Positions 2,306 to 21,384 of a stretch of DNA of 64,000 bases are shown here, piece after piece. Position 1 is the first letter of the stretch, and every line of letters starts with the position of its first letter. The notes under the pieces are model-generated. The model saw only the letters and a program-made list of their open reading frames with translations, ran no database searches and had not been told where the DNA came from. Source of the DNA: Cyanobacteria bacterium P01_F01_bin.150 (lineage in GTDB: Bacteria > Cyanobacteriota > Cyanobacteriia > CAKZMO01); assembly GCA_039189765.1 (NCBI GenBank), contig JBCCYL010000029.1:6494-70493 (forward strand), in the 5' to 3' direction. The position numbers and the translations under genes are program-made.

Positions 2306-2385
2306 GGGTTTCGTTTTAAGGCGAAACAACATCAAAGGTCGTGTGGGCGTGGAGCGGCCACACGATCTGCCTAAAGTTAATACCC
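2306..2385 (-). mobile_element. About 80-bp MITE/REP-like element, family B, copy 1
   Basis: Reverse-complement similarity to 33940-34019, 41664-41742 and 44423-44501; two internal hairpins; lies between convergent genes. Confidence 0.7.
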
Positions 2386-2387
2386 AA

Positions 2388-3320
2388 CTAGTCCAATCCC
2401 TCAAATCTCCAGGGAACGGGATCAACTGCAGTACCATTCACATACAGTCCCCAGTGAAGGTGGGGACCCGTTGAAGCACCAGTGGAACCGATCGCTCCGA
2501 TTACTTGACCTGCTTCGACAAAATCACCATCTTGGACATCAATGCGGCTGAGATGAATCATAATACTGAGTACACCTTGACCGTGATCAATGCCAATAGT
2601 GTTGCCATGCAGCTCAAATCCTTCGCTAACGGTCCCTACCAGGCGAATATAACCTGAGGCCGGAGCCACCACTGGAGCTCCGGTTCCTGCGGCATAATCG
2701 ACACCTCTGTGGTAATAGTTTTGGGCAAATTCTCCGTTGTAATAGCGGCGGTTTCCATATTCAGAGCTGACTCGGCCACCGCTGGGCCGGAGCATGGGGC
2801 CATCCCAAAATTTCTCAGGACTGAGGATTTTCTTAAATTCAGCGACACGAGCAAATTCATGATCCGTGCCTAAGTTTGAATTTCCAGGGGAAAGTCGGAT
2901 CCATTGGGTATGGAAGGAGCGATCGCTCAAATTGACTGACCTTGACTCAGACCCTTCATCGCCATCAATTTGAATGGTTTTTTGACCAGGTGTATCCAAA
3001 GGACTCGTTGGCACCATAGCTCGAAATCGGCCATCAGGAAGGGGAAAGCTTTGGTAAGTATTTTCGCCCATCGTAACCAAAGGAGGATTGACTGTGCCTT
3101 GGTTGGGACTGATAAAGACAGAAATGGTGTCGCCTAAACGGGGATTTCCAGGCAAAATATCCACGCTGTAAGCATATACACCTGACCCTACCGTAAGAAC
3201 CAACGCCAATGTACCAGCTAGAATAGCCATCAAACGGCGACTATGGCGTGCCAAGAGTTGCCGAAATTCAGACTCAAAAGACCAATATCTTGTTCTGGCA
3301 GTATGCTTCGTTTGATTCAT
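2388..3320 (-). CDS. M23 family metallopeptidase (peptidoglycan hydrolase)
   Basis: HRGVD (HxxxD) and HLH motifs, STGPHLHW, N-terminal hydrophobic/signal segment. Confidence 0.92.
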   Translation of the reverse strand: MNQTKHTARTRYWSFESEFRQLLARHSRRLMAILAGTLALVLTVGSGVYAYSVDILPGNPRLGDTISVFISPNQGTVNPPLVTMGENTYQSFPLPDGRFRAMVPTSPLDTPGQKTIQIDGDEGSESRSVNLSDRSFHTQWIRLSPGNSNLGTDHEFARVAEFKKILSPEKFWDGPMLRPSGGRVSSEYGNRRYYNGEFAQNYYHRGVDYAAGTGAPVVAPASGYIRLVGTVSEGFELHGNTIGIDHGQGVLSIMIHLSRIDVQDGDFVEAGQVIGAIGSTGASTGPHLHWGLYVNGTAVDPVPWRFEGLD

Positions 3321-3544
3321 CAGTTTATCCTTGGCTACAACAATGTGCTGGCCTAATGTGGAGGCACAATACGGGCATCTCCTTATGCAGCCAGCGCACC
3401 AAATATTTTACTCATTATGGTCGCGTGGCATCAGGATGAAATAAGGTATTGCTTTAAACTAGCTTAGGGCGCATTCCCCCACCCTAGAGAGGATGGGGGA
3501 GGTTTCATTTGCTGGTTGAAGGAATCCAAGGGACAAACCATACG

Positions 3545-4708
3545 ATGAGTCAGGTCGTTATTATTGGATGCGGATTAGTGGGGGCAGCGATCGCCTATGA
3601 ACTAAGCGCAATCACTAACTTAAAAATTACGGTTCTGGATCGACAACTTCCAGCCCAGGGTTCTACAGGCGCAGCTTTAGGGGTGTTGATGGGGGCGATT
3701 AGTCAAAAGAAAAAAGGGCGGGCTTGGAAACTAAGGGAACATAGTCTTCGTACCTATGAAATGTGGGTACCTGAATTAGAAAAAGTGACTGCTCAGTCTA
3801 TTCGCTTTAACCGAGATGGGTTGGTTCGTTTAATCTTTGGTGATGATAATTTAGAGAAATGGGAAGCACTCCGAACGATTCGGCATGACCAGGGCTGGCC
3901 GTTGGAAATTTGGCCTCGTAGTGAGCTGGATCAGCGATACCCAGGTATTGGTGAATATGTGGGCGATCGTATGATTACTGGGGCGATCTATTCGGGGGGC
4001 GATCGCCAAATTGATCCCAAAGCCTTGACCTACGCTTTGATTGCTGCCTGCAAACAGCGCGGTGTAACCTTTCACTTTGAGACAGAAGTCTGTGGCCTGG
4101 ATTTGAGTAGCGACGCTGCTTTCTCAACACATCCCCATCTGATTTTGACCCCATCAACTTCTTTGCAGGCGGATTGGGTGATTATTTCGGCAGGGCTGGA
4201 GACGACGGGACTGACAGAGGGGGTTCAGCATCCTGTGGATATTCGGCCTGTGCTGGGGCAAGCAATGAGAGTGAGGTTACCGTTATCGGTCGTTGCTGAG
4301 GCGATGTCCAGCCAAGTGGCTAATGATATGTCAACGTTTCAACCCGTGCTGACTGGAAACGATGTTCATGTGATTCCGCTGGGCGTAAAGGATGTCCATC
4401 AAGAGTATTGGGTTGGAGCGACGGTGGAATTTCCAGATGATCACGGTTCTGTGATGGCCGATGAGGCTTTATTCCAGCAGATGTGGGCAGGGGCGATCGC
4501 GTTTTACCCAGTCCTTGCAAACGCTGATATTTTAGAACGATGGTCTGGTAACCGGCCCCGACCCTTTGGGCGTCCAGCCCCGATAGTGGAACCTTTGGCA
4601 GGATCTTCTCAAGTAATTGTGGCAGCGGGACATTATCGCAATGGTGTTCTTCTTGCTCCTGCAACTGCTCACCTTGTCAAAGAATTCATGGGGTATGGGG
4701 ATAGCTGA
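3545..4708 (+). CDS. FAD-dependent oxidoreductase, DAO/glycine oxidase family
   Basis: GCGLVG dinucleotide-binding motif right after the ATG at 3545; GxRP and GHYRNGVLLAP motifs. Confidence 0.88.
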   Translation: MSQVVIIGCGLVGAAIAYELSAITNLKITVLDRQLPAQGSTGAALGVLMGAISQKKKGRAWKLREHSLRTYEMWVPELEKVTAQSIRFNRDGLVRLIFGDDNLEKWEALRTIRHDQGWPLEIWPRSELDQRYPGIGEYVGDRMITGAIYSGGDRQIDPKALTYALIAACKQRGVTFHFETEVCGLDLSSDAAFSTHPHLILTPSTSLQADWVIISAGLETTGLTEGVQHPVDIRPVLGQAMRVRLPLSVVAEAMSSQVANDMSTFQPVLTGNDVHVIPLGVKDVHQEYWVGATVEFPDDHGSVMADEALFQQMWAGAIAFYPVLANADILERWSGNRPRPFGRPAPIVEPLAGSSQVIVAAGHYRNGVLLAPATAHLVKEFMGYGDS

Positions 4709-6508: not shown

Positions 6509-7516
6509 TCATCGTCGAGTTGTCTGATGTTCGTCACTGCGAGTGTGGGTATTGATAGGGTTCCGGGATCGATAAAAATCAATGTCCGCTCGACGTAAGC
6601 GGAGTTGAATATCTTCCAGCATTTTACGATTTACGGACAGGACATCGGCTACTAACCCCAATACCCATAACTGAACTCCCACTAAGATTAGGATTGCAGC
6701 CAAAATCAAGCTAGGAGCGCGTACCCGTGTGGGATCATCAAACCAGTAGAGCAGGAGCCAGCGTAAGCACAGTGCCATGCCTACTCCAAAGGGTACGCCT
6801 CCAAAAACAGTAAAAAACCGCATCGGTCTGTACACCATAAAAATGCGGAAAATGGTGAGAATAGACCGTTGAATATAAGTGGGAATACTTTTTACCAAGC
6901 GAGACGGACGCAAATCCCCATTTGTCCGTATGGGCACTGATGTAATCACCATCCCTTTTTGTCCTGCTTGAATAATCGTCTCCAGTGTGTATGTATATTC
7001 ATTAAACACATTTAATTGGATCGCTGCGTGACGGCTCATCGCTCGGAATCCACTGGGAGCATCAGGAATATCCGTACTGCTGGCTAGGCGAACAACCCAG
7101 CTACCCAAGCCCTGTAAAAATTTTTTGGTCGGAGAAAAGTGAGGAATGGATTGAATAGGTCGTTCCCCCACCACAATTTCAGCATCTCCCTGAAGAATGG
7201 GAGCGACTAACTTTGGAATATCTGCTGCACAGTACTGATTATCAGCATCAGTATTGACAATAATGTCTGCTCCAGCTTTCAATGCGGCATCTATTCCAGC
7301 CATAAACCCGGCTGCTAAACCCTGATTATGTTCAAAGCTCACTATATGGTCGACCCCCCACTCTTGAGCGACTTTAGCCGTGCGATCGCTACTACCATCA
7401 TCAATAACCAGCCACTCTACCGTATCGACTTCTGGTAAGTGGCGAGGTAGCTCAGCCAAAGTAATGCCAAGAGTTGCCTCTTCGTTGTAGCAGGGAATTT
7501 GAATAATTAACTTCAC
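6509..7516 (-). CDS. Glycosyltransferase family 2 (DPM/GtrB-like) with C-terminal TM helices
   Basis: IPCYNEE, DDGSSD, DAD motifs; two C-terminal hydrophobic helices. Confidence 0.92.
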   Translation of the reverse strand: MKLIIQIPCYNEEATLGITLAELPRHLPEVDTVEWLVIDDGSSDRTAKVAQEWGVDHIVSFEHNQGLAAGFMAGIDAALKAGADIIVNTDADNQYCAADIPKLVAPILQGDAEIVVGERPIQSIPHFSPTKKFLQGLGSWVVRLASSTDIPDAPSGFRAMSRHAAIQLNVFNEYTYTLETIIQAGQKGMVITSVPIRTNGDLRPSRLVKSIPTYIQRSILTIFRIFMVYRPMRFFTVFGGVPFGVGMALCLRWLLLYWFDDPTRVRAPSLILAAILILVGVQLWVLGLVADVLSVNRKMLEDIQLRLRRADIDFYRSRNPINTHTRSDEHQTTRR

Positions 7517-7889
7517 AATATTTCGCAGGTCTACCGTTTATGTTGTCGCATTAAAGCGAAATCTAAGCCCTGGATGACAAGATATAGATGTTAAGACTAT
7601 CTCCGATCAGGGGAGCAAAGACAAGAAATGGAGTCGTTGGTAAAGCTATTGCTGATCCTATCCCTGATAAAAATACTTGGGGATCGCTGAATCCGTATAA
7701 GAGTTTCTTACTTAAACAGAAAAAACGTAATCTTGATTACATCCAAACTCTAATCTTTTTTTTAGAATTTGGCATGATGCATTGGGCAGACATGGGCCAT
7801 AATGCCTGTTAAACCAGCTTATACAAAATATGATGGCTCTTTGACTCTACAGCCTGATCAACTTTTAAGATAAGGACAACGCATTTGTA

Positions 7890-8399
7890 ATGGAAAATAT
7901 TGCTGATAGTTTCGCTAACCTATGTGATTCCTACATCACACTGGCAGACCGGTTTAATCAACTTGATGTGGAACACATGACTTTGAAAGAAAAAGTGGTG
8001 CCTTTGCTAAAGACCTTGAAAAGTTATCAGCAGGCAATAGTAACCCTTCAATCTGAAAAGCAGGTTTTACAACAGAAATTGCAAGGAACTCAAGAAGAAT
8101 GTAAAGTTTTGGCTGCTAAAAATGATTCTCTTAAAGTATTAGAGCCATTGTTAAAGGATGAAGTCATCACTTTGTTAGCAGATGCCACAGAGCAAGCCGC
8201 TTTAGTGAAGGAAACAATCAGTGAGATGGATAGCAATCATGCTCCTGATCTAAATGAAGATGAAAAAAGCTTGCTTTCTATATTCTATAGCGATCCCGAA
8301 CGGTTTTCAGCGATTCACCACCAGCCATCGTCTCCTGGTTCCGATTCAACCTTTGCAAGCAAGTTTGCTGCACCCTCTCCGGACCCGGCACTTGTGTAA
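7890..8399 (+). CDS. Hypothetical coiled-coil protein
   Basis: 169-aa ORF with heptad-rich sequence and an upstream AAGGA. Confidence 0.75.
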   Translation: MENIADSFANLCDSYITLADRFNQLDVEHMTLKEKVVPLLKTLKSYQQAIVTLQSEKQVLQQKLQGTQEECKVLAAKNDSLKVLEPLLKDEVITLLADATEQAALVKETISEMDSNHAPDLNEDEKSLLSIFYSDPERFSAIHHQPSSPGSDSTFASKFAAPSPDPALV

Positions 8400-8606
8400 G
8401 GCTCAGAAGCGCTCCCCCTCTTTTGTTCTTGAAAAGGTTTTGAAACGTAAGTGGGGGAGTCAAAACGCATAAAATTTTTGCTCCAGCGCCTGAGTTTAAT
8501 GCTGGTTTGAACCAACCAAAAATTTTTCTTCTTAGCGTCCCCTGCTTAATGGTTTTAATGTCGTTACAATTTCGGGGCAGGTGAATAAAGCGTAGAAGGG
8601 AAATCT

Positions 8607-9176
8607 TTGGAAATGCAGGTTGAGTTATTACAAGCTACTTTAGTTGAGCTTTTCGGCGACGGTCTGGGGGGAAATGCGGTTGATGGTTGGGTAATTAGTG
8701 ATAGTGGTAGCCAATTACTCATTTTATTGTCAGCCGATCAGACTTGGTTACGAGTAATGATTTCAATTGCAACCGAAGATGAAGCGCAGCCTTATCTTCA
8801 GCAGCTCCTGAAAGCTAATTTTGATGATACCCAAGAGGTGCGATACGCTATTTCAAATAAGGTGTTGTGGGGTATTTATCAACATGATTTAGAGGGGTTA
8901 GGCGTCGCGACGCTGAAAGCAGCTATTGCTCGTCTGATTGACCTTAAACAAGATGGTTTGAGTAATTGTTTTCAGCAGGTTGTGGAAGGCCAGATCCGCC
9001 AAATAATTTGGGTATCAAAGCAACAGGGACAAACGTTGGAAGCAACTATCCAAACGTTAGAACGCTTTTATGCTGAGGGAATGTTGGGTGGACTGGAACA
9101 ACCCAAAGAAGATAAAGAATCGTTTCTGAATGCATGGCGTTATCAATTGAATAGACTATGGGATGAGGTTGAGTAG
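8607..9176 (+). CDS. Hypothetical protein, YbjN/CesT chaperone-like N-terminal domain
   Basis: LLKANFDDTQEVRYA..LWG pattern recalled from a conserved cyanobacterial family. Confidence 0.7.
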   Translation: MEMQVELLQATLVELFGDGLGGNAVDGWVISDSGSQLLILLSADQTWLRVMISIATEDEAQPYLQQLLKANFDDTQEVRYAISNKVLWGIYQHDLEGLGVATLKAAIARLIDLKQDGLSNCFQQVVEGQIRQIIWVSKQQGQTLEATIQTLERFYAEGMLGGLEQPKEDKESFLNAWRYQLNRLWDEVE

Positions 9177-11567: not shown

Positions 11568-14500
11568 ATGTCCCAAAGTGTAGCCTCCGAAAACGAACGA
11601 ACTCTGAAAACACTCTGCCGCACAATTCGTTTAACTAGTCAACGCAGATTTGAACTCATCATTGTACGGTGTAACTATCAAAAACTACAGAAAAGACTGT
11701 TATTCCAGTTGCACAAAAATTGCCCCATTCCTTTTGAGGAATTGGCACTACCAAGAACATCCCAAACCCTATATACGTTAATTGAGACCTCTTATACAGA
11801 AAAATGGCCAGAGGCTCTTTGTGTTTGGGGGTTTGAGGAAGTAGACGATTTAGAGACTCTATTATTAGCGACTAATCAAGTTAGGGAAGAATTTAGAAAA
11901 AACTTCAAATTTCCATTAGTCCTATGGTTAAATGATCAGATTCTAACTGAATTAATTCGGCTTGTTCCTGATTTTTATAGTTGGGCAACGCCGCTATCTT
12001 TTAATCTGTCTAATCAAGAATTAGTGGATTTGATCAAAAGTAGTTCTGATACCTTATTTGAACATGCTTTTAACGCCAGCGATCAGTATCCAGTCAGAAA
12101 AACTGTTTTGGAACTAGCCGTTAATGCCCCTAAGTTGCAAGAGCTTAAAATTGCTAAAAATGAGTTAGAAAATCGAAATTATCCCCTAGAGGCTGAACTA
12201 CAAGCGAGTATTAACTTAGCATTAGGGCGTGATTTCTATCGTCGAGATCAATTGGGTAAAGCTGAGGAAAAATACCAACAAAGCCTTGCCTATTGGGCAG
12301 ATACTCAACAAACTCAACGATCGGCTATGGTTTTATTCCACCTCGGTCTTTGTTATTGGCGTAAAGCCTATCTTGAACGATTAGCGCCGGAAATGTGTTG
12401 GAAATTAGCTAAAAAGTGCTTTGCAGATTGCTTAGAGAGTTTAGAGAGTTTAGACGCAGATCAATCGCAACGGCTTGTTGCTAATTTTATTGGCCAACTC
12501 GGTGAGGTATTGCAGCAGCTTGGCGAATGGGATGCACTCCAAACGTTAGCAGAAAATTCTTTAAGGTTACACCAAAAATTTTCCCATCCAGCAAGATTAG
12601 CCAGAGATTGGGGATTTCTGGCATCGATTGCTCTGCATCACTCTGACTGGGACAAAACGTATCTCAATGCCCAAAAAGCGCTGCAAGCTTTGGAGGACTC
12701 AAGAGAAGGCGATCGTCAACGTAAAGGACTATATTTATGGCTCTTGGCCCAGGCTCAGAAACAGCTTGGGGCAATTGATGGGGCGATCGATAGCTTGGAA
12801 GCTGCAAAGAAAACGGGCCAGTTCCAAAATGATCCGCTCATTTATATTCAAATTTTAAAGGCATTACGTGATCTTTATTTTCAACAAGGTCGCTATATCG
12901 AGGCGTTTGATGTTAAACAAGAACAACAAGCGGTTGAAAGCCAGTATGGGTACCGGGCTTTTATTGGAGCTAGTCGCTTACGGCCATTACGGGACGTTGG
13001 ATTAGCCTTACTAGCGAGTGAACCATCGGAGGCGATCGCCCAAGAATTATCGGTTTCAGTCCGCCATCAGGACATCAGCAGTTTGTTGGAACGACTGGCA
13101 CGCCCTAATTATAAATTGACCATTATTCACGGTCAGTCTGGAGTTGGCAAAAGTTCTATGATGAGCGCGGGTTTGGTGCCTACGCTCAAGCACAAAATTA
13201 TGAATAGTCGTGACGTTGTCCCCGTTTATTGCCAGTTTTATGGCAATTGGGAAGAGCACCTATGCCAATGTATGAATATAAGCCTAGAACCCTATCCAGA
13301 TGCACGGAGAAAAGAATTAAAATCGTCGCTTGATATTCTCCACCAAATCCGTCGTAATGATACTCAAAACCTCTTGACAGTATTAATTTTTGATCAGTTT
13401 GAAGAATTTTTTATCAACTGCGAGACACCAAATAAGCGTAGACCTTTCTTTGATTTTTTAAACCAGTGCTTTCAACTTCCTTTTATCAAAGTTTTACTAG
13501 TCCTTCGAGAAGACTACTTACACTATCTACTAGAATATGAACGGCTTCCTAGCAATAGCTATATTACTCAAAATATTCTCAAGCAAACAAATCGTTTTGA
13601 ACTGATCAATTTTTCTGAAGAAGATACAAAAGAGATTATCACTAGATTAACGGAACGATCAAGTATTACTTGGGAACCTCAACTCGTTGATGCTGTTGTT
13701 CATGATTTAGCTCAAGAGCAAGGAAGTATCCGCCCTATTGAATTACAAATTGTTGGTGCTCAACTTCAAGCTGAAAATATTAATACTCTCTCTGCCTATG
13801 AAGACAAGGGAACAAAAGATAAATTAGTTCAGCGCTATTTAGAAACAGTTGTTGAAGACTGTGGCCCTGAAAACAGGAAAGCGGCTAATTTAATATTATA
13901 TCTCCTGTTAGTAGATAAGGATACACGTCCACAACGAACAAAAGAAGAAATTGGAATAGAGCTAAAAAGATTAGCTATTGACTTGATTGAAGAATCAAAT
14001 CGTCTAGATTTAGTGCTCCAAATATTTGTCAAATCAGGTTTAGTTTTCCTTCTTCCAGAGACTCCTTCCAGTAGATATCAACTTGTTCATGATTATCTAG
14101 CTACCTTTATTCGGCGTCAGCAGCAACCTGATATCAATGCACGGATTGCACATTTAGAACGTGAGAAGAAAAATCTTAAACAGGTTATCACTGCATTAGA
14201 ACAAGAACAGGAACAACGTTTTAAGACGGAAGAAGAACTTAATGCAACTGCTAAAGAACTTACTGTAACAGCACAAGAACTGAAGAAAACGGCACATACT
14301 AATAAAGAGACTAAGAAGAGGCTAGCAGTTTGGTCAGGAGTTTTGGGAGTGGCTTTTTTAGTTGTATCAGCTCTAGGATTAACGGCCTACTTTAGGTTGC
14401 AACAAACACGTACGGAGTTTGATCTAGAACAAAAAAGTTGGGAAGCTTTACAACAGTTTCACACTCAACCACTACAAGGCTTAATTGCAGCCATGAATGT

Positions 14501-16508
14501 GGGTATTCAATTTCAAGAATTTAAAGACAAAAATAGTGAAACGACCCTTACGACTCCCATCTTTGCGCTACACAAAATGCTGAGCAATATCCGGTTACAG
14601 AACACGCTCGCTGCACATGATGCTGAAATCTATGCAGTAGCTTTCAATGACAGTAGCAATCATTATCTTGTAACAGGTTCACAAGATACAACAGCTCGAC
14701 TGTGGAATTTAAAGACAGGTGATAGTATTCCTTTAGAGGGGCACGAGAAAGCAGTTCTTGATGTGAGCTTTAGCCCTCAGGGTCAGCATATTGCGACGGC
14801 ATCCGCAGATGGAACGGTTAAATTTTGGAACTATGATGGCACAATCCATCATGAGTGCTCAATGCAGGATGATGTTTTGAGTATTGATTTCAAAAAAAAT
14901 GGAGACTTTATAGCTGCTATTGGAAACGGGAAACTCCAACTTCGAAAACCAGAATGTGAACTAATTTCTGAAGGCATCACAGAGTCAAAAACACCTGTCT
15001 TTAGTATAGACTTTAGTGATGACGAAAGCATGCTTGTAGCAGGCGATGAAAAAGGCAGTGTTAGTATCTGGCAAGTGAGTCAAAATGCTCTTAGCCAACT
15101 CAAAAGTTTAAACCTCCATAATCAGTCGGTGGAAGATGTAGCATTCAGTCCTGGCGACAGCAGTGTTGTAACAGTTTCCTCTGACGGTACAGGTAATATT
15201 TGGCGTCTTCAAGATGATGACATTTTGAACTTTGAGGCAAAAGGTGCCCCAATAAGAAGTATTACTTCAATATCTTCTCAGCGTAGCCGAGAAGATATTG
15301 TAACTTCTTCAGATGACAACATGGCTAGGCTATGGGATCTTCAAGGACAAGAAAAATTTAGCTTTAAAGGTCATAGGAATGTCGTTAGAGATGTTGCCTT
15401 TGATTCAACAACACAAACTTTAGCAACAGTTTCTGATGATAGATCGGTTAAACTGTGGAACTTAAATAATAATCTATTTAGACCTAGAAGAATCAACCTT
15501 CTTCACGAGTCCATTGATGCTTCTAATATTAATGTTTCTAGTGTCAGCTATGATAATAATCTGTTGGCAGCATCTTCTGGGCACGGTACTATTTATATTT
15601 TAGATTTCAGAAGCAATACTATTCTAGCTAGTTTTTCACCTTATATAAATCAAAACAGAGATGAAAAACACCACATACTTGACCTTAAGTTTCATCCAAG
15701 AAATTACACACTTGTGACTGCTTCAAATTATGGTCAAGTGATTCTATGGTCACAACATGGGGAAAAAATTAAGGAACTCCAAAAATCTTATTACCCTAAT
15801 TTTCAAGATACAAAGTTAGCATTTGATTCTACTGGTACTCAGGTAGCAATTGCAAATTCAGAAGGTACAGTTCGTATTGTAAACCTTGAGGGTGAAAGCC
15901 TTGACCAACAGAAGCTCCATAATGAGAAAATCACAGATATTAAATTCAACAATGATGGTGGTATTATCGTTACAGCATCCGTAGATCAAACAGCCTGTTT
16001 TTGGCAACTGGATACATTACCTGTCTGCAGTGAAAAATATGGAAGTCAGCTTGTTAGTGTTGCTATTAATCCAGAAAATACTTTGGTTATTTCTGATTTA
16101 GAAGGGACAATTAATATTTGGCACCCGACTAAACAGCAGTCATCAAATACCGATGATATTGTGTCCTCCAGCACCCGCTCTATCAACGACATTATTTTCG
16201 ATAAAAGCGGTAGATTTGCAACTGCCTCAGCCGATGGTTCCGCAGCTCTATGGTCAGGAGAGGGTAAACCTCTAGCAGAATTTCAAGGACATCGGACACC
16301 CGTCCAGAACATCTTTTTTACTAATGATGCTCAAGAACTATTGACGATTTCTAGTGATGGTCAAATTCGTCAATGGGAAATTCAAAGTCTTGATGATCTT
16401 TTAAACGAAGGATGTGAGTGGCTCTCCAATTACTTAAGATTTAGGAAAAATAGCAAGCCTACAGAGGAGCAAAAAATAGTTAATTTTTGCTCCTCCATCT
16501 CAGATTAA
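11568..16508 (+). CDS. TPR + nSTAND1-type NTPase + coiled coil + TM + WD40 repeat protein
   Basis: TPR-like helices; Walker A GQSGVGKSS; Walker B LIFDQFEE; YQLVHDYL; TM LAVWSGVLGVAFLVVSALGLTAYF; about 14 WD40 repeats. Confidence 0.9.
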   Translation: MSQSVASENERTLKTLCRTIRLTSQRRFELIIVRCNYQKLQKRLLFQLHKNCPIPFEELALPRTSQTLYTLIETSYTEKWPEALCVWGFEEVDDLETLLLATNQVREEFRKNFKFPLVLWLNDQILTELIRLVPDFYSWATPLSFNLSNQELVDLIKSSSDTLFEHAFNASDQYPVRKTVLELAVNAPKLQELKIAKNELENRNYPLEAELQASINLALGRDFYRRDQLGKAEEKYQQSLAYWADTQQTQRSAMVLFHLGLCYWRKAYLERLAPEMCWKLAKKCFADCLESLESLDADQSQRLVANFIGQLGEVLQQLGEWDALQTLAENSLRLHQKFSHPARLARDWGFLASIALHHSDWDKTYLNAQKALQALEDSREGDRQRKGLYLWLLAQAQKQLGAIDGAIDSLEAAKKTGQFQNDPLIYIQILKALRDLYFQQGRYIEAFDVKQEQQAVESQYGYRAFIGASRLRPLRDVGLALLASEPSEAIAQELSVSVRHQDISSLLERLARPNYKLTIIHGQSGVGKSSMMSAGLVPTLKHKIMNSRDVVPVYCQFYGNWEEHLCQCMNISLEPYPDARRKELKSSLDILHQIRRNDTQNLLTVLIFDQFEEFFINCETPNKRRPFFDFLNQCFQLPFIKVLLVLREDYLHYLLEYERLPSNSYITQNILKQTNRFELINFSEEDTKEIITRLTERSSITWEPQLVDAVVHDLAQEQGSIRPIELQIVGAQLQAENINTLSAYEDKGTKDKLVQRYLETVVEDCGPENRKAANLILYLLLVDKDTRPQRTKEEIGIELKRLAIDLIEESNRLDLVLQIFVKSGLVFLLPETPSSRYQLVHDYLATFIRRQQQPDINARIAHLEREKKNLKQVITALEQEQEQRFKTEEELNATAKELTVTAQELKKTAHTNKETKKRLAVWSGVLGVAFLVVSALGLTAYFRLQQTRTEFDLEQKSWEALQQFHTQPLQGLIAAMNVGIQFQEFKDKNSETTLTTPIFALHKMLSNIRLQNTLAAHDAEIYAVAFNDSSNHYLVTGSQDTTARLWNLKTGDSIPLEGHEKAVLDVSFSPQGQHIATASADGTVKFWNYDGTIHHECSMQDDVLSIDFKKNGDFIAAIGNGKLQLRKPECELISEGITESKTPVFSIDFSDDESMLVAGDEKGSVSIWQVSQNALSQLKSLNLHNQSVEDVAFSPGDSSVVTVSSDGTGNIWRLQDDDILNFEAKGAPIRSITSISSQRSREDIVTSSDDNMARLWDLQGQEKFSFKGHRNVVRDVAFDSTTQTLATVSDDRSVKLWNLNNNLFRPRRINLLHESIDASNINVSSVSYDNNLLAASSGHGTIYILDFRSNTILASFSPYINQNRDEKHHILDLKFHPRNYTLVTASNYGQVILWSQHGEKIKELQKSYYPNFQDTKLAFDSTGTQVAIANSEGTVRIVNLEGESLDQQKLHNEKITDIKFNNDGGIIVTASVDQTACFWQLDTLPVCSEKYGSQLVSVAINPENTLVISDLEGTINIWHPTKQQSSNTDDIVSSSTRSINDIIFDKSGRFATASADGSAALWSGEGKPLAEFQGHRTPVQNIFFTNDAQELLTISSDGQIRQWEIQSLDDLLNEGCEWLSNYLRFRKNSKPTEEQKIVNFCSSISD

Positions 16509-16525
16509 ATGTAGCGTTATAATCT

Positions 16526-16819
16526 CTACCAATTAGACCAATTGTTCCAATTAGACCAGTTTCCCCAGTCAAACCTTCGAGATTGAGGTAGCACTTTACC
16601 CTTGACATAATCTAAATCCCAACCATAGCCTAATGATTGTTTTCTTACAGTCTCGACCCTTTCTCTAACCGAAGTATTTGATTTGACTGTGGCACTTTCT
16701 GCCCTAGAATTGAAGATATTAGTAATAGGGTAAAGTACAATTTGCGAAATTAAAATGGTGCTAAGGAGTCTGTAAATTTTATTGATTCTAATCATGGGGG
16801 ACAGTTTGAATAACGACAA
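16526..16819 (-). CDS. RiPP precursor 2 (GrrA/OscA-like triceptide precursor), core WGNWSNWNNWSNW
   Basis: Hydrophobic N-terminus, leader motif SVRERVETVRK, four tandem WxN plus terminal W; same strand as and downstream of the rSAM gene. Alternative ATG at 16795. Confidence 0.85.
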   Translation of the reverse strand: MSLFKLSPMIRINKIYRLLSTILISQIVLYPITNIFNSRAESATVKSNTSVRERVETVRKQSLGYGWDLDYVKGKVLPQSRRFDWGNWSNWNNWSNW

Positions 16820-17279
16820 TATTGATTGCGATACATTTTAATTATCCATATAATACAGTTAGTACAAGACGTGAATGTGACACTAGAGCAAACTGCCTAA
16901 ATTTTCTCTAGAGTTAGCCTGAAGGCTATTGATTGAAGGAAAACATTGGCTATCTTACAGTAGTCAAAACTAAAATTGTCACACAAACAGAACATAGAGC
17001 TTGTCAAGTTGAAATTAACCAACAAGGCCATCAAAATGTCATCCTGAATCTAGTATTGGATAATTCTCATATACACATATACGAAAATCTACTAGCCTTA
17101 CAGGAAATTACTCTAACTTTTCATGAACTCCCTCATTCTTTTATTAGTTCGCAAGAACTATTTATGGATTTGGATAGTAGCCCCTAGGAAAAAACTTGTA
17201 AAATACTAAGAATTTTCTACCAATATCAAACACCTTTATCATTACATACTAAATAGCTTTCATCGCTTATTTGCCCCTG

Positions 17280-17333
17280 AAAAATAGAAGAAACGCCAGC
17301 CTCTTCAAAAATGTACTCAAAGCTGACGTTTCT
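17280..17333 (-). terminator. Possible terminator downstream of precursor 1
   Basis: agaaacgccagc...gctgacgtttct imperfect stem with an A-run on its left; the loop is long (about 21 nt). Confidence 0.3.
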
Positions 17334-17556
17334 AATAAATTTGGTAGCTCAGCCTGGAAAAAAGTAATAATACCTTGTCTCAGTCAAGAGCTTTGACAAC
17401 TTGATGGATTGCCTCAAGTGCGATCGCTTTTCACCTAAATTAGTTCGCATAAACAGATTTAGGCACAAACAAAACTAAAACGGTCCACACAATATCAGAG
17501 TTCTAGTGCTAATCTGAGCAATCAATTAATGGTTTATTTGTTCTAGTGAAATAGAA

Positions 17557-17895
17557 TTACCAATTATCCCAGTTGCTCCAGTTAGCCCAGTTAGCCCAGT
17601 TGTTCCATGCGGCTTTAACTATTCGCTCTGAGTTCAGCGCTAGTGAGTAGTTTTCTGATGCAGGAATATGGTGTCCCTGCGATAAATCGTTGGCCTTATT
17701 AAACTGAGAGCTATCATTATTTTTACGAACTCGGTTAATACGTGATTTCAACTCCTGTTCTTGATGTTCTAGAGAATATTCGCTTCGGCTATAGGCAAGT
17801 GTAGCAACATTGTCAGTCAGTATCAGAGATACAGCGGCCACGCAAACAGTTAAAAACGGTGCGAAAAGTCCTGTTAGAGAAGCTTTTTGGTTCAT
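17557..17895 (-). CDS. RiPP precursor 1 (GrrA/OscA-like triceptide precursor), core WNNWANWANWSNWDNW
   Basis: Signal-peptide-like N-terminus, leader motif LKSRINRVRK, five tandem WxN plus terminal W. Confidence 0.88.
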   Translation of the reverse strand: MNQKASLTGLFAPFLTVCVAAVSLILTDNVATLAYSRSEYSLEHQEQELKSRINRVRKNNDSSQFNKANDLSQGHHIPASENYSLALNSERIVKAAWNNWANWANWSNWDNW

Positions 17896-17947
17896 GAGAA
17901 ATCAATGGGGGACGAAATGGTTACTATTGCTCTTTCAACCTTAGGAA

Positions 17948-17977
17948 TTGTGGTAAATCCTCAAGGATTTACCACAA
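17948..17977. promoter_or_regulatory. Perfect 13-bp inverted repeat upstream of precursor 1
   Basis: ttgtggtaaatcc-tcaa-ggatttaccacaa, with no U-tract on either side. Confidence 0.5.
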
Positions 17978-18090
17978 ACTTAAAACTTGAAGGAGCACTA
18001 CATTAATATTCGCTTATGCAATTATAGTTGCGAACGAAAGTACCGCCCTCAGTGACTTGTCTCACACGTAAGCGGTTCGAGTATTTAAGG

Positions 18091-18987
18091 TTACAGTTTA
18101 AAGTGTCCCCTGATTGTTAGCTGAACATCGGAGTGATTTTGGTCTAAGGTAGACCCCTCGTGAAGAATATTCTCTGTGGGAGCAATGTAGGCTTCTCCGG
18201 GAGAAATGCGTACTTTTATTACTGGATAGTTTGGGTAACGTTTTGCGAAGGCATTCTTCAACGTCAGCGGAGAGACTTTGCTTAAACTGAGGCGATTTTT
18301 ATAGAACAGATTGCGTCCTTTCCACTGCACTTGTCTCGATATTTTTAAACTATTTTCTGGGAGGAACTCTGGATGACGCAACACTATTAACATGTCTATT
18401 AGGGTGAGGTTGATGAAGAGGAAGTGGCGATCGCTCTCCCCCAAATTAATGCAAATCCGATTGGTTGATTGATGACGATATTGCAGAGGTAACCGATCCC
18501 AACTGTCCAGATGCAGGCCAATGTAGTGGCCTGCTGTCGGATTGATTGTAACAGTTGGTAAATTGGGCCAGCTAATGCCAATACCCGCTAGAGTTGGCTC
18601 TCCTTTATTGCAGTGGGATTTGAAAAACGTCAAGATCGGTTCAGTTGCTTTCCCATACTCCGGTGTGCTGAGCTGGTGATTATCGTCGGGAGTCAGTTGA
18701 CTGATATTCAATTGACGTAGAGGAGCCAAAATATGGTCTGGAACCGAGAAGATTCCGACAGTCCGACTGTAATCACTGGCTTGACGATGGGTGATTAACG
18801 TTTTGGATTGTTCTGATGATAATTCTTGCCATGTATCTTGTGGAATATAGGCATCTTTGGAAAAGGCGAGATTAGGGAAGTGGTCGGCAGTAGGTTGTTG
18901 GATGCCTGAATTAATCCATACACGAGATTTAGATACGTCCAACGTGGAATCAAGGTACAGTTGAACGCTATCCAGAAGCTGAGTCAT
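18091..18987 (-). CDS. Uncharacterised protein with HxD...H triad (putative Fe(II)/2OG-like oxygenase) in the RiPP locus
   Basis: GLHLDSWD, NRICINLG, GEAYIAPTENILHEG and TIRGHF motifs. The ATG at 18987 removes the overlap with the rSAM gene (ORF track start 19092). Confidence 0.7.
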   Translation of the reverse strand: MTQLLDSVQLYLDSTLDVSKSRVWINSGIQQPTADHFPNLAFSKDAYIPQDTWQELSSEQSKTLITHRQASDYSRTVGIFSVPDHILAPLRQLNISQLTPDDNHQLSTPEYGKATEPILTFFKSHCNKGEPTLAGIGISWPNLPTVTINPTAGHYIGLHLDSWDRLPLQYRHQSTNRICINLGESDRHFLFINLTLIDMLIVLRHPEFLPENSLKISRQVQWKGRNLFYKNRLSLSKVSPLTLKNAFAKRYPNYPVIKVRISPGEAYIAPTENILHEGSTLDQNHSDVQLTIRGHFKL

Positions 18988-19033
18988 AATGCAACCATTA
19001 ACGAAGGGGACTAGCACTACATTCTTTGCCCCA

Positions 19034-20254
19034 TCAGACTGTTGCTTTACTCTTTTCCATTGATGGGGCTGACGAAGGTACCTGAATTGCAAAGGTTTCT
19101 TCTAAATCCGCAAGAACAATGTCCGTGAGGATTTTCTTCGTATATTTACAATACATTGTTTCGGAAGAATTAAAGGAGCCGTTTTCAAAATACTTATTGG
19201 ACGGTGCGCCTCCGCCACACACGGAGAAGTACTCACATGTTTTTTTACACAACGACACTCCAGCCTGGATATCTCGGTTCATGTGCTTGAATTTTGGAGT
19301 TTGACACACCTTATCAAAGGATTGATTTACGATATTTCCTAAAATAAAATCGCCATAGACCTCACTGTCCATAGATAGAAGTTCAGGCGAAAATGTTGAA
19401 AAATCACCATTATAAGCAATATTAAGCATGGTGAAGGGCGTAAACTGGCCTCGTTGAATATTGGTTTTGCCCAAAATGGATTGTTTGGTTTCCTCTAGTT
19501 CTCTAATTTGCAGTACGCCAGGGTTTTCTTTGGTGAGGGCCAACATGCGTATCATAAACGCCTTATATTTTTGTGCGCTATCGTCTGACGACAACGAAGA
19601 TGCTTGGTGTGTGCCTTCCATTTCATCGATATTGAAGCCCACTTGCTGAATATTTTGATCTACAAAGAACTGAAACAGCTCATCAGGATAATCAAGACCA
19701 TCACGAGTTAGGACGGCAATAACGTGGAAAGGGATATTGTGCTGTTGCAGTAAACGAACCCCGCGCATGGTGTACTTATAACTGCCCAATCCTCTGCGGG
19801 TTAAGCGATAGGCATCATGTAAAAATTCTGGACCATCTAGACTCACACCAATACGGATGCCGTAGGTTTTGATTAAATCACACCATTGATCATTGATGAG
19901 TGTTGCATTTGTTTGGATCGCGTGGGTAATGAGGCGTAACCCCATTGGAGAGTTCTGATTCAGTTGTTCGATCTTTTCAAACGTTGTTTGGTAGAACTTG
20001 ACAGGCATGGTTAAGGGTTCCCCTGCGTGCCAAACCACTGTAAATTCTGAATCTAAAAACTGACTCTGAAACAGATGGGTAAAGATAGGTTCAAGCAAGT
20101 CTAGAGAAAATTCGTGCTTGAGATGGCGATCGGGTAAATAACAATAACTACAGTTCAGGTTACAAAAGGTGGTGGGTTGAATGATAACCAGTTGGATTGG
20201 ACCATAGTTTTTGCGACCATGAAACCATGTGGAGACGGTATCAAGCAAACTCAT
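19034..20254 (-). CDS. grrM: Cyclophane-forming radical SAM/SPASM peptide maturase, GrrM/OscB family
   Basis: IIQPTTFCNLNCSYCYLP (CxxxCxxC), WHAGEP, STFSPELL, and CKKTCEYFSVCGGGAPSNKYFENG...ETMYC. The ORF track starts at 20335. Confidence 0.92.
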   Translation of the reverse strand: MSLLDTVSTWFHGRKNYGPIQLVIIQPTTFCNLNCSYCYLPDRHLKHEFSLDLLEPIFTHLFQSQFLDSEFTVVWHAGEPLTMPVKFYQTTFEKIEQLNQNSPMGLRLITHAIQTNATLINDQWCDLIKTYGIRIGVSLDGPEFLHDAYRLTRRGLGSYKYTMRGVRLLQQHNIPFHVIAVLTRDGLDYPDELFQFFVDQNIQQVGFNIDEMEGTHQASSLSSDDSAQKYKAFMIRMLALTKENPGVLQIRELEETKQSILGKTNIQRGQFTPFTMLNIAYNGDFSTFSPELLSMDSEVYGDFILGNIVNQSFDKVCQTPKFKHMNRDIQAGVSLCKKTCEYFSVCGGGAPSNKYFENGSFNSSETMYCKYTKKILTDIVLADLEETFAIQVPSSAPSMEKSKATV

Positions 20255-20376
20255 AGGATTGGGGCGGTGTAAAGGACAACAAGGTAATATGTTATTCCTC
20301 TCTACAGTGTCATAGTTCTGTCCTCCTGAACACAAAACTATGACAGTTATTATCTTTATAATAGTATGCGAGCTTT

Positions 20377-20886
20377 TTACAGATTAAGACGTTTTGTCAT
20401 CCAAAGGGATTGGGGTTTGTAATCGAGCTGATGATACATGCTGAGGGCGATGTAATTATCTGTGAAGACTTGTAGGCTAATTTTGCGATCGCCCCTTTTC
20501 ATCGCCCATTGTTCAGCTTTGTCCATCAACGCAGTGCCGATCCCTTGTCGGCGATACTTAGGATAGACGTATAGCAGAAAAATGTAAGCGTGGCGATCGC
20601 CTTCAATCTGATCAATCGCATCCCCCAACCACAAACAGCCTACTGCCGTTTGACATGAGGACCGCGCAGATAATGAAAGAGTCGGTATTGGTGAAGGTGA
20701 CTGGATGTACACCCACCATAGAGGCGTATCACTAGATAAGTACTGATCGACCGTTTGGACAAGATGAGTGACGGGTTGTTTAGGATGAAGCTCTTGATAG
20801 GTCTTCTGCATGACTTTTACCAGAGACGCCCGATCCAAACTAGAGCCTCTGGTAATCTCATAACCTGGACATAATTCGTTAGCCAT
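20377..20886 (-). CDS. GNAT family N-acetyltransferase
   Basis: YVYPKYRRQGIGTALM acetyl-CoA motif; probable ATG at 20886 overlaps the stop of the upstream gene. Confidence 0.88.
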   Translation of the reverse strand: MANELCPGYEITRGSSLDRASLVKVMQKTYQELHPKQPVTHLVQTVDQYLSSDTPLWWVYIQSPSPIPTLSLSARSSCQTAVGCLWLGDAIDQIEGDRHAYIFLLYVYPKYRRQGIGTALMDKAEQWAMKRGDRKISLQVFTDNYIALSMYHQLDYKPQSLWMTKRLNL

Positions 20887-21136
20887 TCTGAACTGCGTCT
20901 TTGTCCGATGCGGGTGGAAAAGAGGAAAACTGAGCAATGGCCGTAGAGAAGGGAATGCTTGCCTGGGTAACACCAGAATTTGAATCACTACCATGCTTCA
21001 TGGTCGTTGGTTCTTCTATCGGTGCGGGCGCAGCTAAATCACTGGGTAAAAAGATTCGAGCACTCACTGCAATCATCGCAACCAAGAAAATTAATACAAT
21101 AAAGAATGGCGCGACGTACTGACGAATAAAGGACAT
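20879..21136 (-). CDS. Small single-TM conserved cyanobacterial protein
   Basis: RQYVAP + TM + SARIFLPSDLAAPAP. Confidence 0.75.
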   Translation of the reverse strand: MSFIRQYVAPFFIVLIFLVAMIAVSARIFLPSDLAAPAPIEEPTTMKHGSDSNSGVTQASIPFSTAIAQFSSFPPASDKDAVQNG

Positions 21137-21384
21137 ATCTCTAACCTACTAGTTGAACAACCAAAAAAGTGGGCTATTGCTCGAAGCCTGAATATCAGCG
21201 CTGTTGCTGAATACACCCTGATTATAGTACCAAGAAACTGCCCTATATTTTCTGGTTAGGCTCAAATATACTAGCTGTCTGGAGTTTTGCTGAAAGGTGA
21301 GTTGTAACTCAATGGTCGTTCAAAATTCAGAGCGCTATAAAATGCTAGAGGGCGATCGCGTTTATATAGCCCTGATACCTGGTT

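Follow-up and report, generated by a model that had tools for sequence, protein, structure and literature searches.

The window analysed here, a stretch of 64,000 nucleotides from Cyanobacteria bacterium P01_F01_bin.150 (contig JBCCYL010000029.1, positions 6,494 to 70,493), carries on its minus strand a gene (18091..18987) that almost certainly encodes a soluble Fe(II)/2-oxoglutarate (2OG)-dependent oxygenase of the MicC family. The gene lies between that of a GrrM/OscB-type radical SAM/SPASM maturase and two precursor peptide genes, and the oxygenase probably tailors these two (Trp-x-Asn)n peptides. It belongs to a lineage that is tied to GrrM/OscB maturases and spans Cyanobacteria, Acidobacteria, Bacteroidota, Proteobacteria and others. 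An earlier reading of the same DNA, made from the letters alone (the sequence-only reading), had proposed a new tailoring oxygenase at this place. The enzyme class, established experimentally just months earlier, was thus correctly recognised, but the claim of a new family has to be given up, as the protein is a clear homologue of MicC (PDB 9VKM), which was characterised in February 2026.

The gene runs from ATG 18987 to the stop codon at 18091-18093 and encodes 298 amino acids. The open reading frame (ORF) can be extended to a TTG start at 19092, but it then overlaps the 3' end of the upstream gene, and ATG 18987 agrees with the N-termini of the homologues in an alignment of 38 sequences; the N-terminus is MTQLLDSVQLYL. 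The motifs on which the sequence-only reading was built are present as described, namely LHLDSWD (residues 158-164, containing His159 and Asp161), LHEG (residues 275-278, containing His276) and TIRGHF (residues 291-296, containing Arg293). On the minus strand the codons are found at 18511-18513 (His159), 18505-18507 (Asp161) and 18160-18162 (His276). An HExxH motif is absent from all 298 residues, which agrees with the earlier statement that the protein is not of this type and distinguishes it from the alpha-ketoglutarate (alpha-KG) HExxH oxygenases of triceptide and other clusters. The protein had rightly been called unannotated, since Pfam and NCBIfam scans return no model at E <= 1 and its relatives carry the label 'hypothetical protein' in public sources. 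A chance reading frame is ruled out by the number of homologues: a word-indexed search finds 180 at E <= 0.001, most of them from cyanobacteria and all without a Pfam domain, and an exhaustive search of cluster representatives finds 1278 at the same threshold, 1018 of them with E <= 1e-10. The host genome (10.6 Mb in 350 contigs) encodes the oxygenase once and has one gene that passes the cut-off for GrrM.

The relationship to MicC extends over the full length of the protein. A phmmer search of the PDB sequences matches the oxygenase to 9VKM with E 3.3e-29 (residues 4-296 against chain residues 22-293), and a 38-sequence profile matches 9VKM_A, 'Alpha-ketoglutarate-dependent non-heme iron oxygenase MicC', with E 4.3e-62. 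AlphaFold2 gives a confident model (predicted local distance difference test, pLDDT, 92.4; predicted template modelling score, pTM, 0.91), whose best Foldseek match is KdoO with E 1.2e-5. KdoO and other Fe(II)/2OG dioxygenases are structural neighbours with 12-16% identity to the oxygenase, and KdoO acts on a sugar substrate. The PDB library of Foldseek did not return 9VKM for the model, so the direct link to MicC is sequence-based. Given the MicC matches and the confident model, the assignment to the fold of a double-stranded beta-helix (DSBH), for which structure prediction and Foldseek had been named as the check, is nevertheless right.

A literature search for MicC homologues found just the PNAS paper of February 2026 (PMC12912966) and its correction. 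According to the main-text parts of that paper on MicC, the enzyme is a previously unannotated alpha-KG non-heme iron protein from a triceptide cluster of Mucilaginibacter inviolabilis, where it acts in the minviopeptin pathway. Its fold is a DSBH, its triad is H160-D162-H253, and the alanine variant of each triad residue is inactive. In docking, 2OG is bound by R188 (bidentate, at the C5 carboxylate) and K266, and the alanine variants of both are inactive as well; activity requires 2OG and is stopped by ethylenediaminetetraacetate (EDTA). The same parts of the paper describe how MicC hydroxylates the C-alpha of the Gly directly after a His-Ala-Ser cyclophane, after which the N-C-alpha bond breaks, a seven-residue follower is released and the product ends in an amide. 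MicC requires that the ring has been formed and that MicD has ADP-ribosylated the substrate, and it is reported to be strictly Gly-specific, the G8A substrate variant being uncleaved. Its homologues often adjoin radical SAM genes in Actinomycetota and Bacteroidota, for which the authors suggest functional diversification; Cyanobacteria and GrrM-type clusters are not named in these parts of the text.

The catalytic residues can be transferred from MicC, the mapping being read from the profile and single-sequence alignments against the numbering of the MicC paper (with an offset of 20 for the index of the PDB chain). His159, Asp161 and His276 correspond to H160, D162 and H253, Arg187 and Tyr267 to R188 and Y244, and Gln289 and Arg293 to K266 and E270. 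The triad is invariant in 38/38 aligned diverse homologues, and other invariant residues of this alignment include Arg187, Asn176, Arg177, Asn181, Glu265 and Tyr267. In a larger set of 84 homologues, made up of members from 80 genomic loci and the window, the triad is kept in 81, including all 29 that adjoin a GrrM-like gene, and Arg187 is present in every one. The facial triad of a DSBH Fe(II)/2OG enzyme, which had been read from the HxD...H pattern, is therefore borne out by homology, alignment and conservation alike. The assignment of the 2OG-binding arginine has to be changed. The predicted residue is Arg187 (codon 18427-18429), because it aligns with MicC R188, and the Arg of TIRGHF that had been assigned this role (Arg293, codon 18109-18111) is not primarily responsible, though it may help. 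Arg293 is present in 54/84 homologues, with Leu in 24. MicC Lys266 has no equivalent here, as the position is occupied by Gln289, and Lys is found there in just 18/84 homologues. Arg293 lies four residues further on, at the same face of the same strand, and for this reason it might replace the missing Lys. An insertion of about 30 residues (about 205-237) is specific to the subclade of the oxygenase, as seen in the alignment and in the AlphaFold2 model. The features that place the protein in the MicC family are thus full-length similarity, the DSBH fold, the triad, the Arg188 equivalent and the gene context.

This context is that of a triceptide cluster, as had been supposed. The maturase gene (19034..20335, minus strand) is directly upstream of the oxygenase gene on the same strand, 46 bp apart. 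Its longest ORF has 433 amino acids, and by comparison with the homologue at the closest related locus, L001, the start is likely ATG 20254, giving 406 amino acids. The protein has the Radical_SAM and SPASM domains of Pfam and matches TIGR04261 with 529.2 bits (cut-off 310; E 4.9e-159, residues 52-413), which identifies it as a cyclophane-forming enzyme of the GrrM/OscB type. Downstream of the oxygenase gene, also on the minus strand, are the genes for two precursors, so that the position between maturase and precursors is as stated in the sequence-only reading. Precursor A (17557..17895) has 112 amino acids and ends with WNNWANWANWSNWDNW; its core, WNN-WAN-WAN-WSN-WDN-W, consists of five contiguous Trp-x-Asn units and a terminal Trp and contains no Gly. 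Precursor B (16526..16819), 737 bp downstream of A, has a TTG start and 97 amino acids and ends with WGNWSNWNNWSNW; its core, WGN-WSN-WNN-WSN-W, has four contiguous units and a terminal Trp. Neither precursor matches a Pfam or NCBIfam family. Both start with a basic and then a hydrophobic, signal-peptide-like stretch, as read by eye, and this suggests that a peptide modified in the cytoplasm could be exported by the Sec route. Cores like that of precursor A adjoin GrrM-plus-oxygenase pairs in other phyla too.

The association with radical SAM maturases, and with GrrM in particular, is also seen outside the window. We surveyed the 80 genomic loci encoding oxygenase homologues with tblastn, using the GrrM of the window and searching for radical SAM genes within 6 kb. 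A radical SAM/SPASM homologue was found in 59/80 loci, mostly immediately beside the oxygenase gene, and in 28 of these 59 it is a GrrM-like maturase. In a second survey of 401 sampled cyanobacterial genomes, GrrM was detected at E <= 1e-60 in 42, including the host genome. A MicC-family gene is present in three of the other 41 and adjoins GrrM in all three, while 38/41 are without one. The co-occurrence analysis with GrrM homologues that had been called for therefore supports the link.

Phylogeny points in the same direction. When 84 family members are placed in a quick maximum-likelihood tree, the oxygenase groups with the cyanobacterial, GrrM-linked homologues of L001 and L002 (Shimodaira-Hasegawa-like approximate likelihood ratio test, SH-aLRT, 90), and the type of neighbouring maturase is strongly clustered on this tree, with 9 changes as opposed to a shuffled mean of 38.9. 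A FastTree phylogeny of 60 GrrM sequences has one well-supported branch (support 99) that splits the oxygenase-linked enzymes (30) from the oxygenase-less ones (30). As the two sets were sampled differently and 8 oxygenase-less GrrM genomes without a locus were left out, we regard the GrrM tree as supportive of an oxygenase-linked lineage, not as conclusive.

Long homologues form a further link between the two enzymes. Among the best 150 representatives there are 8 proteins of more than 600 amino acids, 7 of which have an N-terminal Radical_SAM domain; the oxygenase part is C-terminal. The GrrM/OscB cut-off is passed by 4/8 and a fifth falls short by 2 bits. These proteins look like natural GrrM-oxygenase fusions, the alternative being gene-calling errors in metagenomes. 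The combination of a GrrM/OscB-type radical SAM part and a C-terminal MicC-family domain occurs in the single metagenome proteins P0123, P0149, P0192, P0203 and P0200. In P0123 (994 amino acids) about 320 extra residues separate the two domains. Such proteins carry an oxygen-sensitive and an oxygen-requiring catalyst on one chain.

A conspicuous difference was found when the precursors of loci with and without the oxygenase were compared. The oxygenase-linked set has 25 precursors located beside GrrM-plus-oxygenase pairs, i.e. the two of the window and 23 others from Cyanobacteria, Acidobacteria, Bacteroidota, Proteobacteria, Elusimicrobia, Campylobacterota and Streptomyces; the oxygenase-less set has 26 precursors located beside GrrM in cyanobacterial genomes without the oxygenase. 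The former have contiguous aromatic-x-Asn repeats, whereas the latter are of the classical Gly-rich GrrA type with spacers, and Gly makes up 6% and 33%, respectively, of the last 60 residues. The residue after the ring is aromatic in 153/184 motifs of the oxygenase-linked set versus 14/217 of the oxygenase-less set. At ring position 2, Asp or Asn is found in 80/184 aromatic-x-Asn/Asp motifs of the oxygenase-linked set versus 9/217, which corresponds to 23/25 precursors versus 6/26. Gly at ring position 2 is found in just 13/25 oxygenase-linked precursors. Signal-peptide-like N-termini are also seen in the precursor of L001 (L001:4116-4463, ...GVAKA/DTS) and in those of the Bacteroidota loci L033, L041, L042, L052, L053, L058 and L066; the short proteobacterial precursors of L057, L061 and L069 are without one.

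It is useful to compare the system with those already described. With MicC it shares full-length homology of the oxygenase, the DSBH fold, the aligned triad and the pairs Arg188/Arg187 and Tyr244/Tyr267. In both cases no Pfam or NCBIfam model exists, hence the annotation as hypothetical, and the gene stands beside a radical SAM enzyme that forms three-residue cyclophanes and beside its precursor. The differences are considerable. The two oxygenases have about 30% identity and are in separate clades of the family tree; Lys266 and Glu270 of MicC are replaced by Gln289 and Arg293, and the insertion at residues 205-237 is extra. In the parts of the MicC paper cited above, the maturase MicB is PasB-like and the cores are YSK/HAS/FTK, while here the partner is of the GrrM/OscB type and the cores are contiguous Trp-x-Asn repeats. 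The MicC system also has a follower, a Gly after the ring and a MicD gene, none of which is found here. With OscA/OscB (GrrA/GrrM, TIGR04261) the system shares a maturase well over the cut-off (529 versus 310 bits) and Trp-x-Asn core units. The canonical cyanobacterial GrrA has Gly-rich spacers and mostly no MicC-family gene, as opposed to the back-to-back repeats and the oxygenase seen here.

We propose the following course of events. The GrrM/OscB maturase would link C7 of Trp to the C-beta of the Asn two residues on, by analogy with OscB, which joins Trp C7 to the C-beta of Asn or Asp two residues on according to the parts of a review consulted (PMC11002830), and the result would be a chain of back-to-back three-residue cyclophanes. 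The oxygenase would then bind Fe(II) via His159, Asp161 and His276, and 2OG via Arg187, possibly aided by Arg293. Decarboxylation of 2OG would yield an Fe(IV)-oxo species that abstracts hydrogen from one of the residues in the cyclised core. The hydroxylated peptide, with its signal-peptide-like N-terminus still attached, would finally be exported. As to the outcome, we tentatively prefer, with clearly less confidence than we have in the tailoring role itself, that the hydroxyl is retained in the product (+16 Da per site), the likeliest site being the Asp or Asn at ring position 2 (as in WNN and WDN). The hydroxylase for Asn, Asp or Trp that the sequence-only reading had put forward would agree with the precursor comparison as far as Asp and Asn are concerned.

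Retained hydroxylation is a common role of Fe/2OG enzymes acting on ribosomal peptides. Functional analogies for the preferred reaction are the Fe/2OG Asp beta-hydroxylases YhhC, CinX/DurX and SmaO from pathways of peptides made on the ribosome and modified after translation (RiPPs), to which no sequence relation was detected, as judged by Pfam and NCBIfam scans rather than by direct comparison. The parts of PMC12186529 consulted report that Fe/2OG enzymes of other RiPP pathways hydroxylate Asp at the beta-carbon, one of them being YhhC, which acts in a triceptide pathway and belongs to another family. We favour retained hydroxylation over a MicC-like cleavage because of the strict Gly requirement of MicC, the Asp/Asn signal in the precursor comparison and the secretion-signal-like N-termini; these fit a product that stays intact until export and so argue against cutting of the peptide in the cytoplasm.

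There are several points that weigh against retained hydroxylation. The sole characterised relative, MicC, leaves no hydroxyl in its product, as its Gly C-alpha hydroxylation ends in cleavage according to the account in PMC12912966. The identity to MicC is only about 30%, and the second essential basic residue of MicC is Gln289 here. The Asp/Asn signal also needs to be read with care. The two precursor subfamilies differ in much else besides Asp/Asn, contiguous repeats on one side and Gly-rich spacers on the other. The 25 rows represent about 12 lineages only, with six near-identical Acidobacteria and five Saprospiraceae/Lewinellaceae among them. The oxygenase-linked set was drawn via the oxygenase from all phyla, while the other comes from the 30 best-scoring cyanobacterial GrrM loci, and one oxygenase-linked precursor (L075, Streptomyces) has no Asp or Asn at position 2. 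Finally, a radical SAM neighbour is missing from 21/80 homologous loci, so the association of the family with cyclophane synthases is not exclusive; these loci belong mostly to one Microcoleus/Kamptonema clade and their neighbours are different.

The alternatives have to be weighed against the same data. A MicC-like chemistry, in which the aromatic residue after a cyclophane is hydroxylated at C-alpha and the hemiaminal collapses with a break of the N-C-alpha bond, appears somewhat less likely than retained hydroxylation and is the alternative that we take most seriously. In its mild form it would trim the single terminal Trp, Tyr or Phe and leave a C-terminal Asn amide; in its strong form it would cut between the repeats. 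It agrees with MicC acting on the residue directly after the ring (HAS-G) to yield a C-terminal amide, as described in PMC12912966, and with the high proportion of aromatic residues at this position in the oxygenase-linked motifs. Moreover, in 18/25 oxygenase-linked precursors, including the two of the window, the last ring is directly followed by one aromatic residue at the C-terminus, and contiguous repeats would offer no ordinary protease sites between the rings. The terminal aromatic is however not oxygenase-specific, since 16/26 oxygenase-less GrrA precursors also end in Trp, and cytoplasmic cuts between the repeats would part the core from its signal-peptide-like N-terminus. The published reaction cannot apply unchanged: both precursors stop one residue past the last ring and thus have no follower, no Gly follows any ring (the G8A variant is uncleaved by MicC), the core of precursor A is free of Gly, and no ADP-ribosyltransferase gene is present in or beside the cluster although MicC needs an ADP-ribosylated substrate in the account cited. 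The most far-reaching version would be an oxidative 'protease' for a multi-core precursor, with C-alpha hydroxylation after each Trp-x-Asn ring releasing small amide-ended cyclophane units. We consider this highly improbable; if true, MicC chemistry would reach beyond Gly to bulky residues and beyond a single cut to iterative ones, and the enzyme would do what ordinary peptidases could not do between strained back-to-back rings.

Another oxidative outcome, i.e. oxidation of the Trp indole or of the Trp beta-carbon, desaturation or a further ring closure, seems more doubtful than trimming or cutting of the MicC kind. Enzymes of the Fe/2OG superfamily that share about 30% identity often catalyse different types of reaction, Trp is the dominant core residue, and the subclade insertion could reshape the substrate site. 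Diversification of function among the homologues is also deemed likely in the MicC parts of PMC12912966. Nevertheless, no comparison favours Trp oxidation, nor is there positive support for any particular alternative of this group. It is improbable that the protein performs no chemical modification here and serves as a structural or substrate-presenting partner of GrrM, or that it is a mere neighbour with an unrelated substrate. The fusion proteins, with their close physical coupling to the radical SAM enzyme, the three of 84 homologues in which the triad is missing and the loci without a radical SAM neighbour could be read in this way. Neither the triad nor Arg187 has been lost here or in any of the 29 GrrM-linked homologues examined, as selection for catalysis predicts, and the flanking genes, being unrelated housekeeping or signalling genes, suggest no other substrate.

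As regards the surroundings, the gene directly upstream of the maturase (20377..20994, minus strand) encodes a GNAT acetyltransferase (Acetyltransf_1, E 1.2e-17). It matches the model of the triceptide N-acetyltransferase HaaN weakly, with 18.9 bits versus a cut-off of 250, and as the gene is absent from L001 we do not count it in the system; its membership of the cluster is uncertain. Further flanking genes encode an nSTAND1-WD40 protein, a tRNA U5-methyltransferase-family protein, an ABC ATPase, a HisZ-like protein and a DnaJ-TPR protein. The first of these, a 1646-residue nSTAND1 NTPase with many WD40 repeats (11568-16508, plus strand), faces the precursor genes in convergent orientation and probably has nothing to do with the cluster. 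Neither a protease nor a transporter nor an ADP-ribosyltransferase was found among the cluster or flanking genes in the window ORFs with Pfam. The 737-bp gap between the precursor genes (16820-17556) has no convincing ORF, only an 84-residue plus-strand frame without a Pfam match. Within it lies a terminator-like hairpin (17306-17287, minus strand) with promoter-like sites just downstream, and precursor B may be transcribed separately. A promoter and terminator scan of 16300-21300 gave 17 promoter-like sites versus 11.6 +/- 3.1 expected and 5 terminator-like sites versus 4.0 +/- 2.0. A search of sequencing runs listed one DNA run, which may be the source sample, and none of RNA.

Some related loci have an organisation of their own. 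In L001, a metagenome-assembled genome of the Elainellaceae, genes for a trypsin-like peptidase and an S8 subtilase (2372-3817 and 7387-9147) flank the precursor-GrrM-oxygenase group on the opposite strand; both enzymes are candidates for a maturation protease, and no equivalent is present in the window. The Microcoleus/Kamptonema clade without a radical SAM neighbour accounts for 18/84 rows (L003-L008, L010-L012, L015-L018, L020, L021, L025, L028 and L051). In L003 (L003:5168-8048) a gene for a 220-residue protein without a Pfam match, which has a Cys/His-repeat end (CSHCSHCTHCTH), is followed by the oxygenase gene and then by a TPR-sulfotransferase gene, and an acetoacetate-decarboxylase-family gene lies upstream on the opposite strand. 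We speculate that loci of this type may encode a separate system, so far undescribed, for modifying peptides or proteins. A Nostoc locus (L009:4237-10121) has a Nif11-like leader gene, a SPASM radical SAM gene of another type and two tandem MicC-family genes, followed on the same strand by two more large ORFs (413 and 305 amino acids). Its layout indicates that the MicC family also serves non-triceptide RiPP pathways in cyanobacteria.

The MicC family was recognised as an oxygenase class only in 2026 and one member has been studied. The present oxygenase is, to judge from its sequence, a real peptide-tailoring enzyme of this known kind, whose reaction on the precursors of the window probably differs from that of MicC. 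The GrrM/OscB-linked lineage to which it belongs is not mentioned in the main-text parts of PMC12912966 on MicC. Since the MicC reaction cannot apply unchanged, a reaction on back-to-back Trp-x-Asn cyclophanes would be a second reaction or substrate class for the family. The annotation gain is a name and a set of predicted catalytic residues for more than 1000 'hypothetical protein' clusters, counted as the 1278 representatives given above, and knowing the reaction of the oxygenase would round off the structure of a triceptide subtype that is widespread but has not been described.

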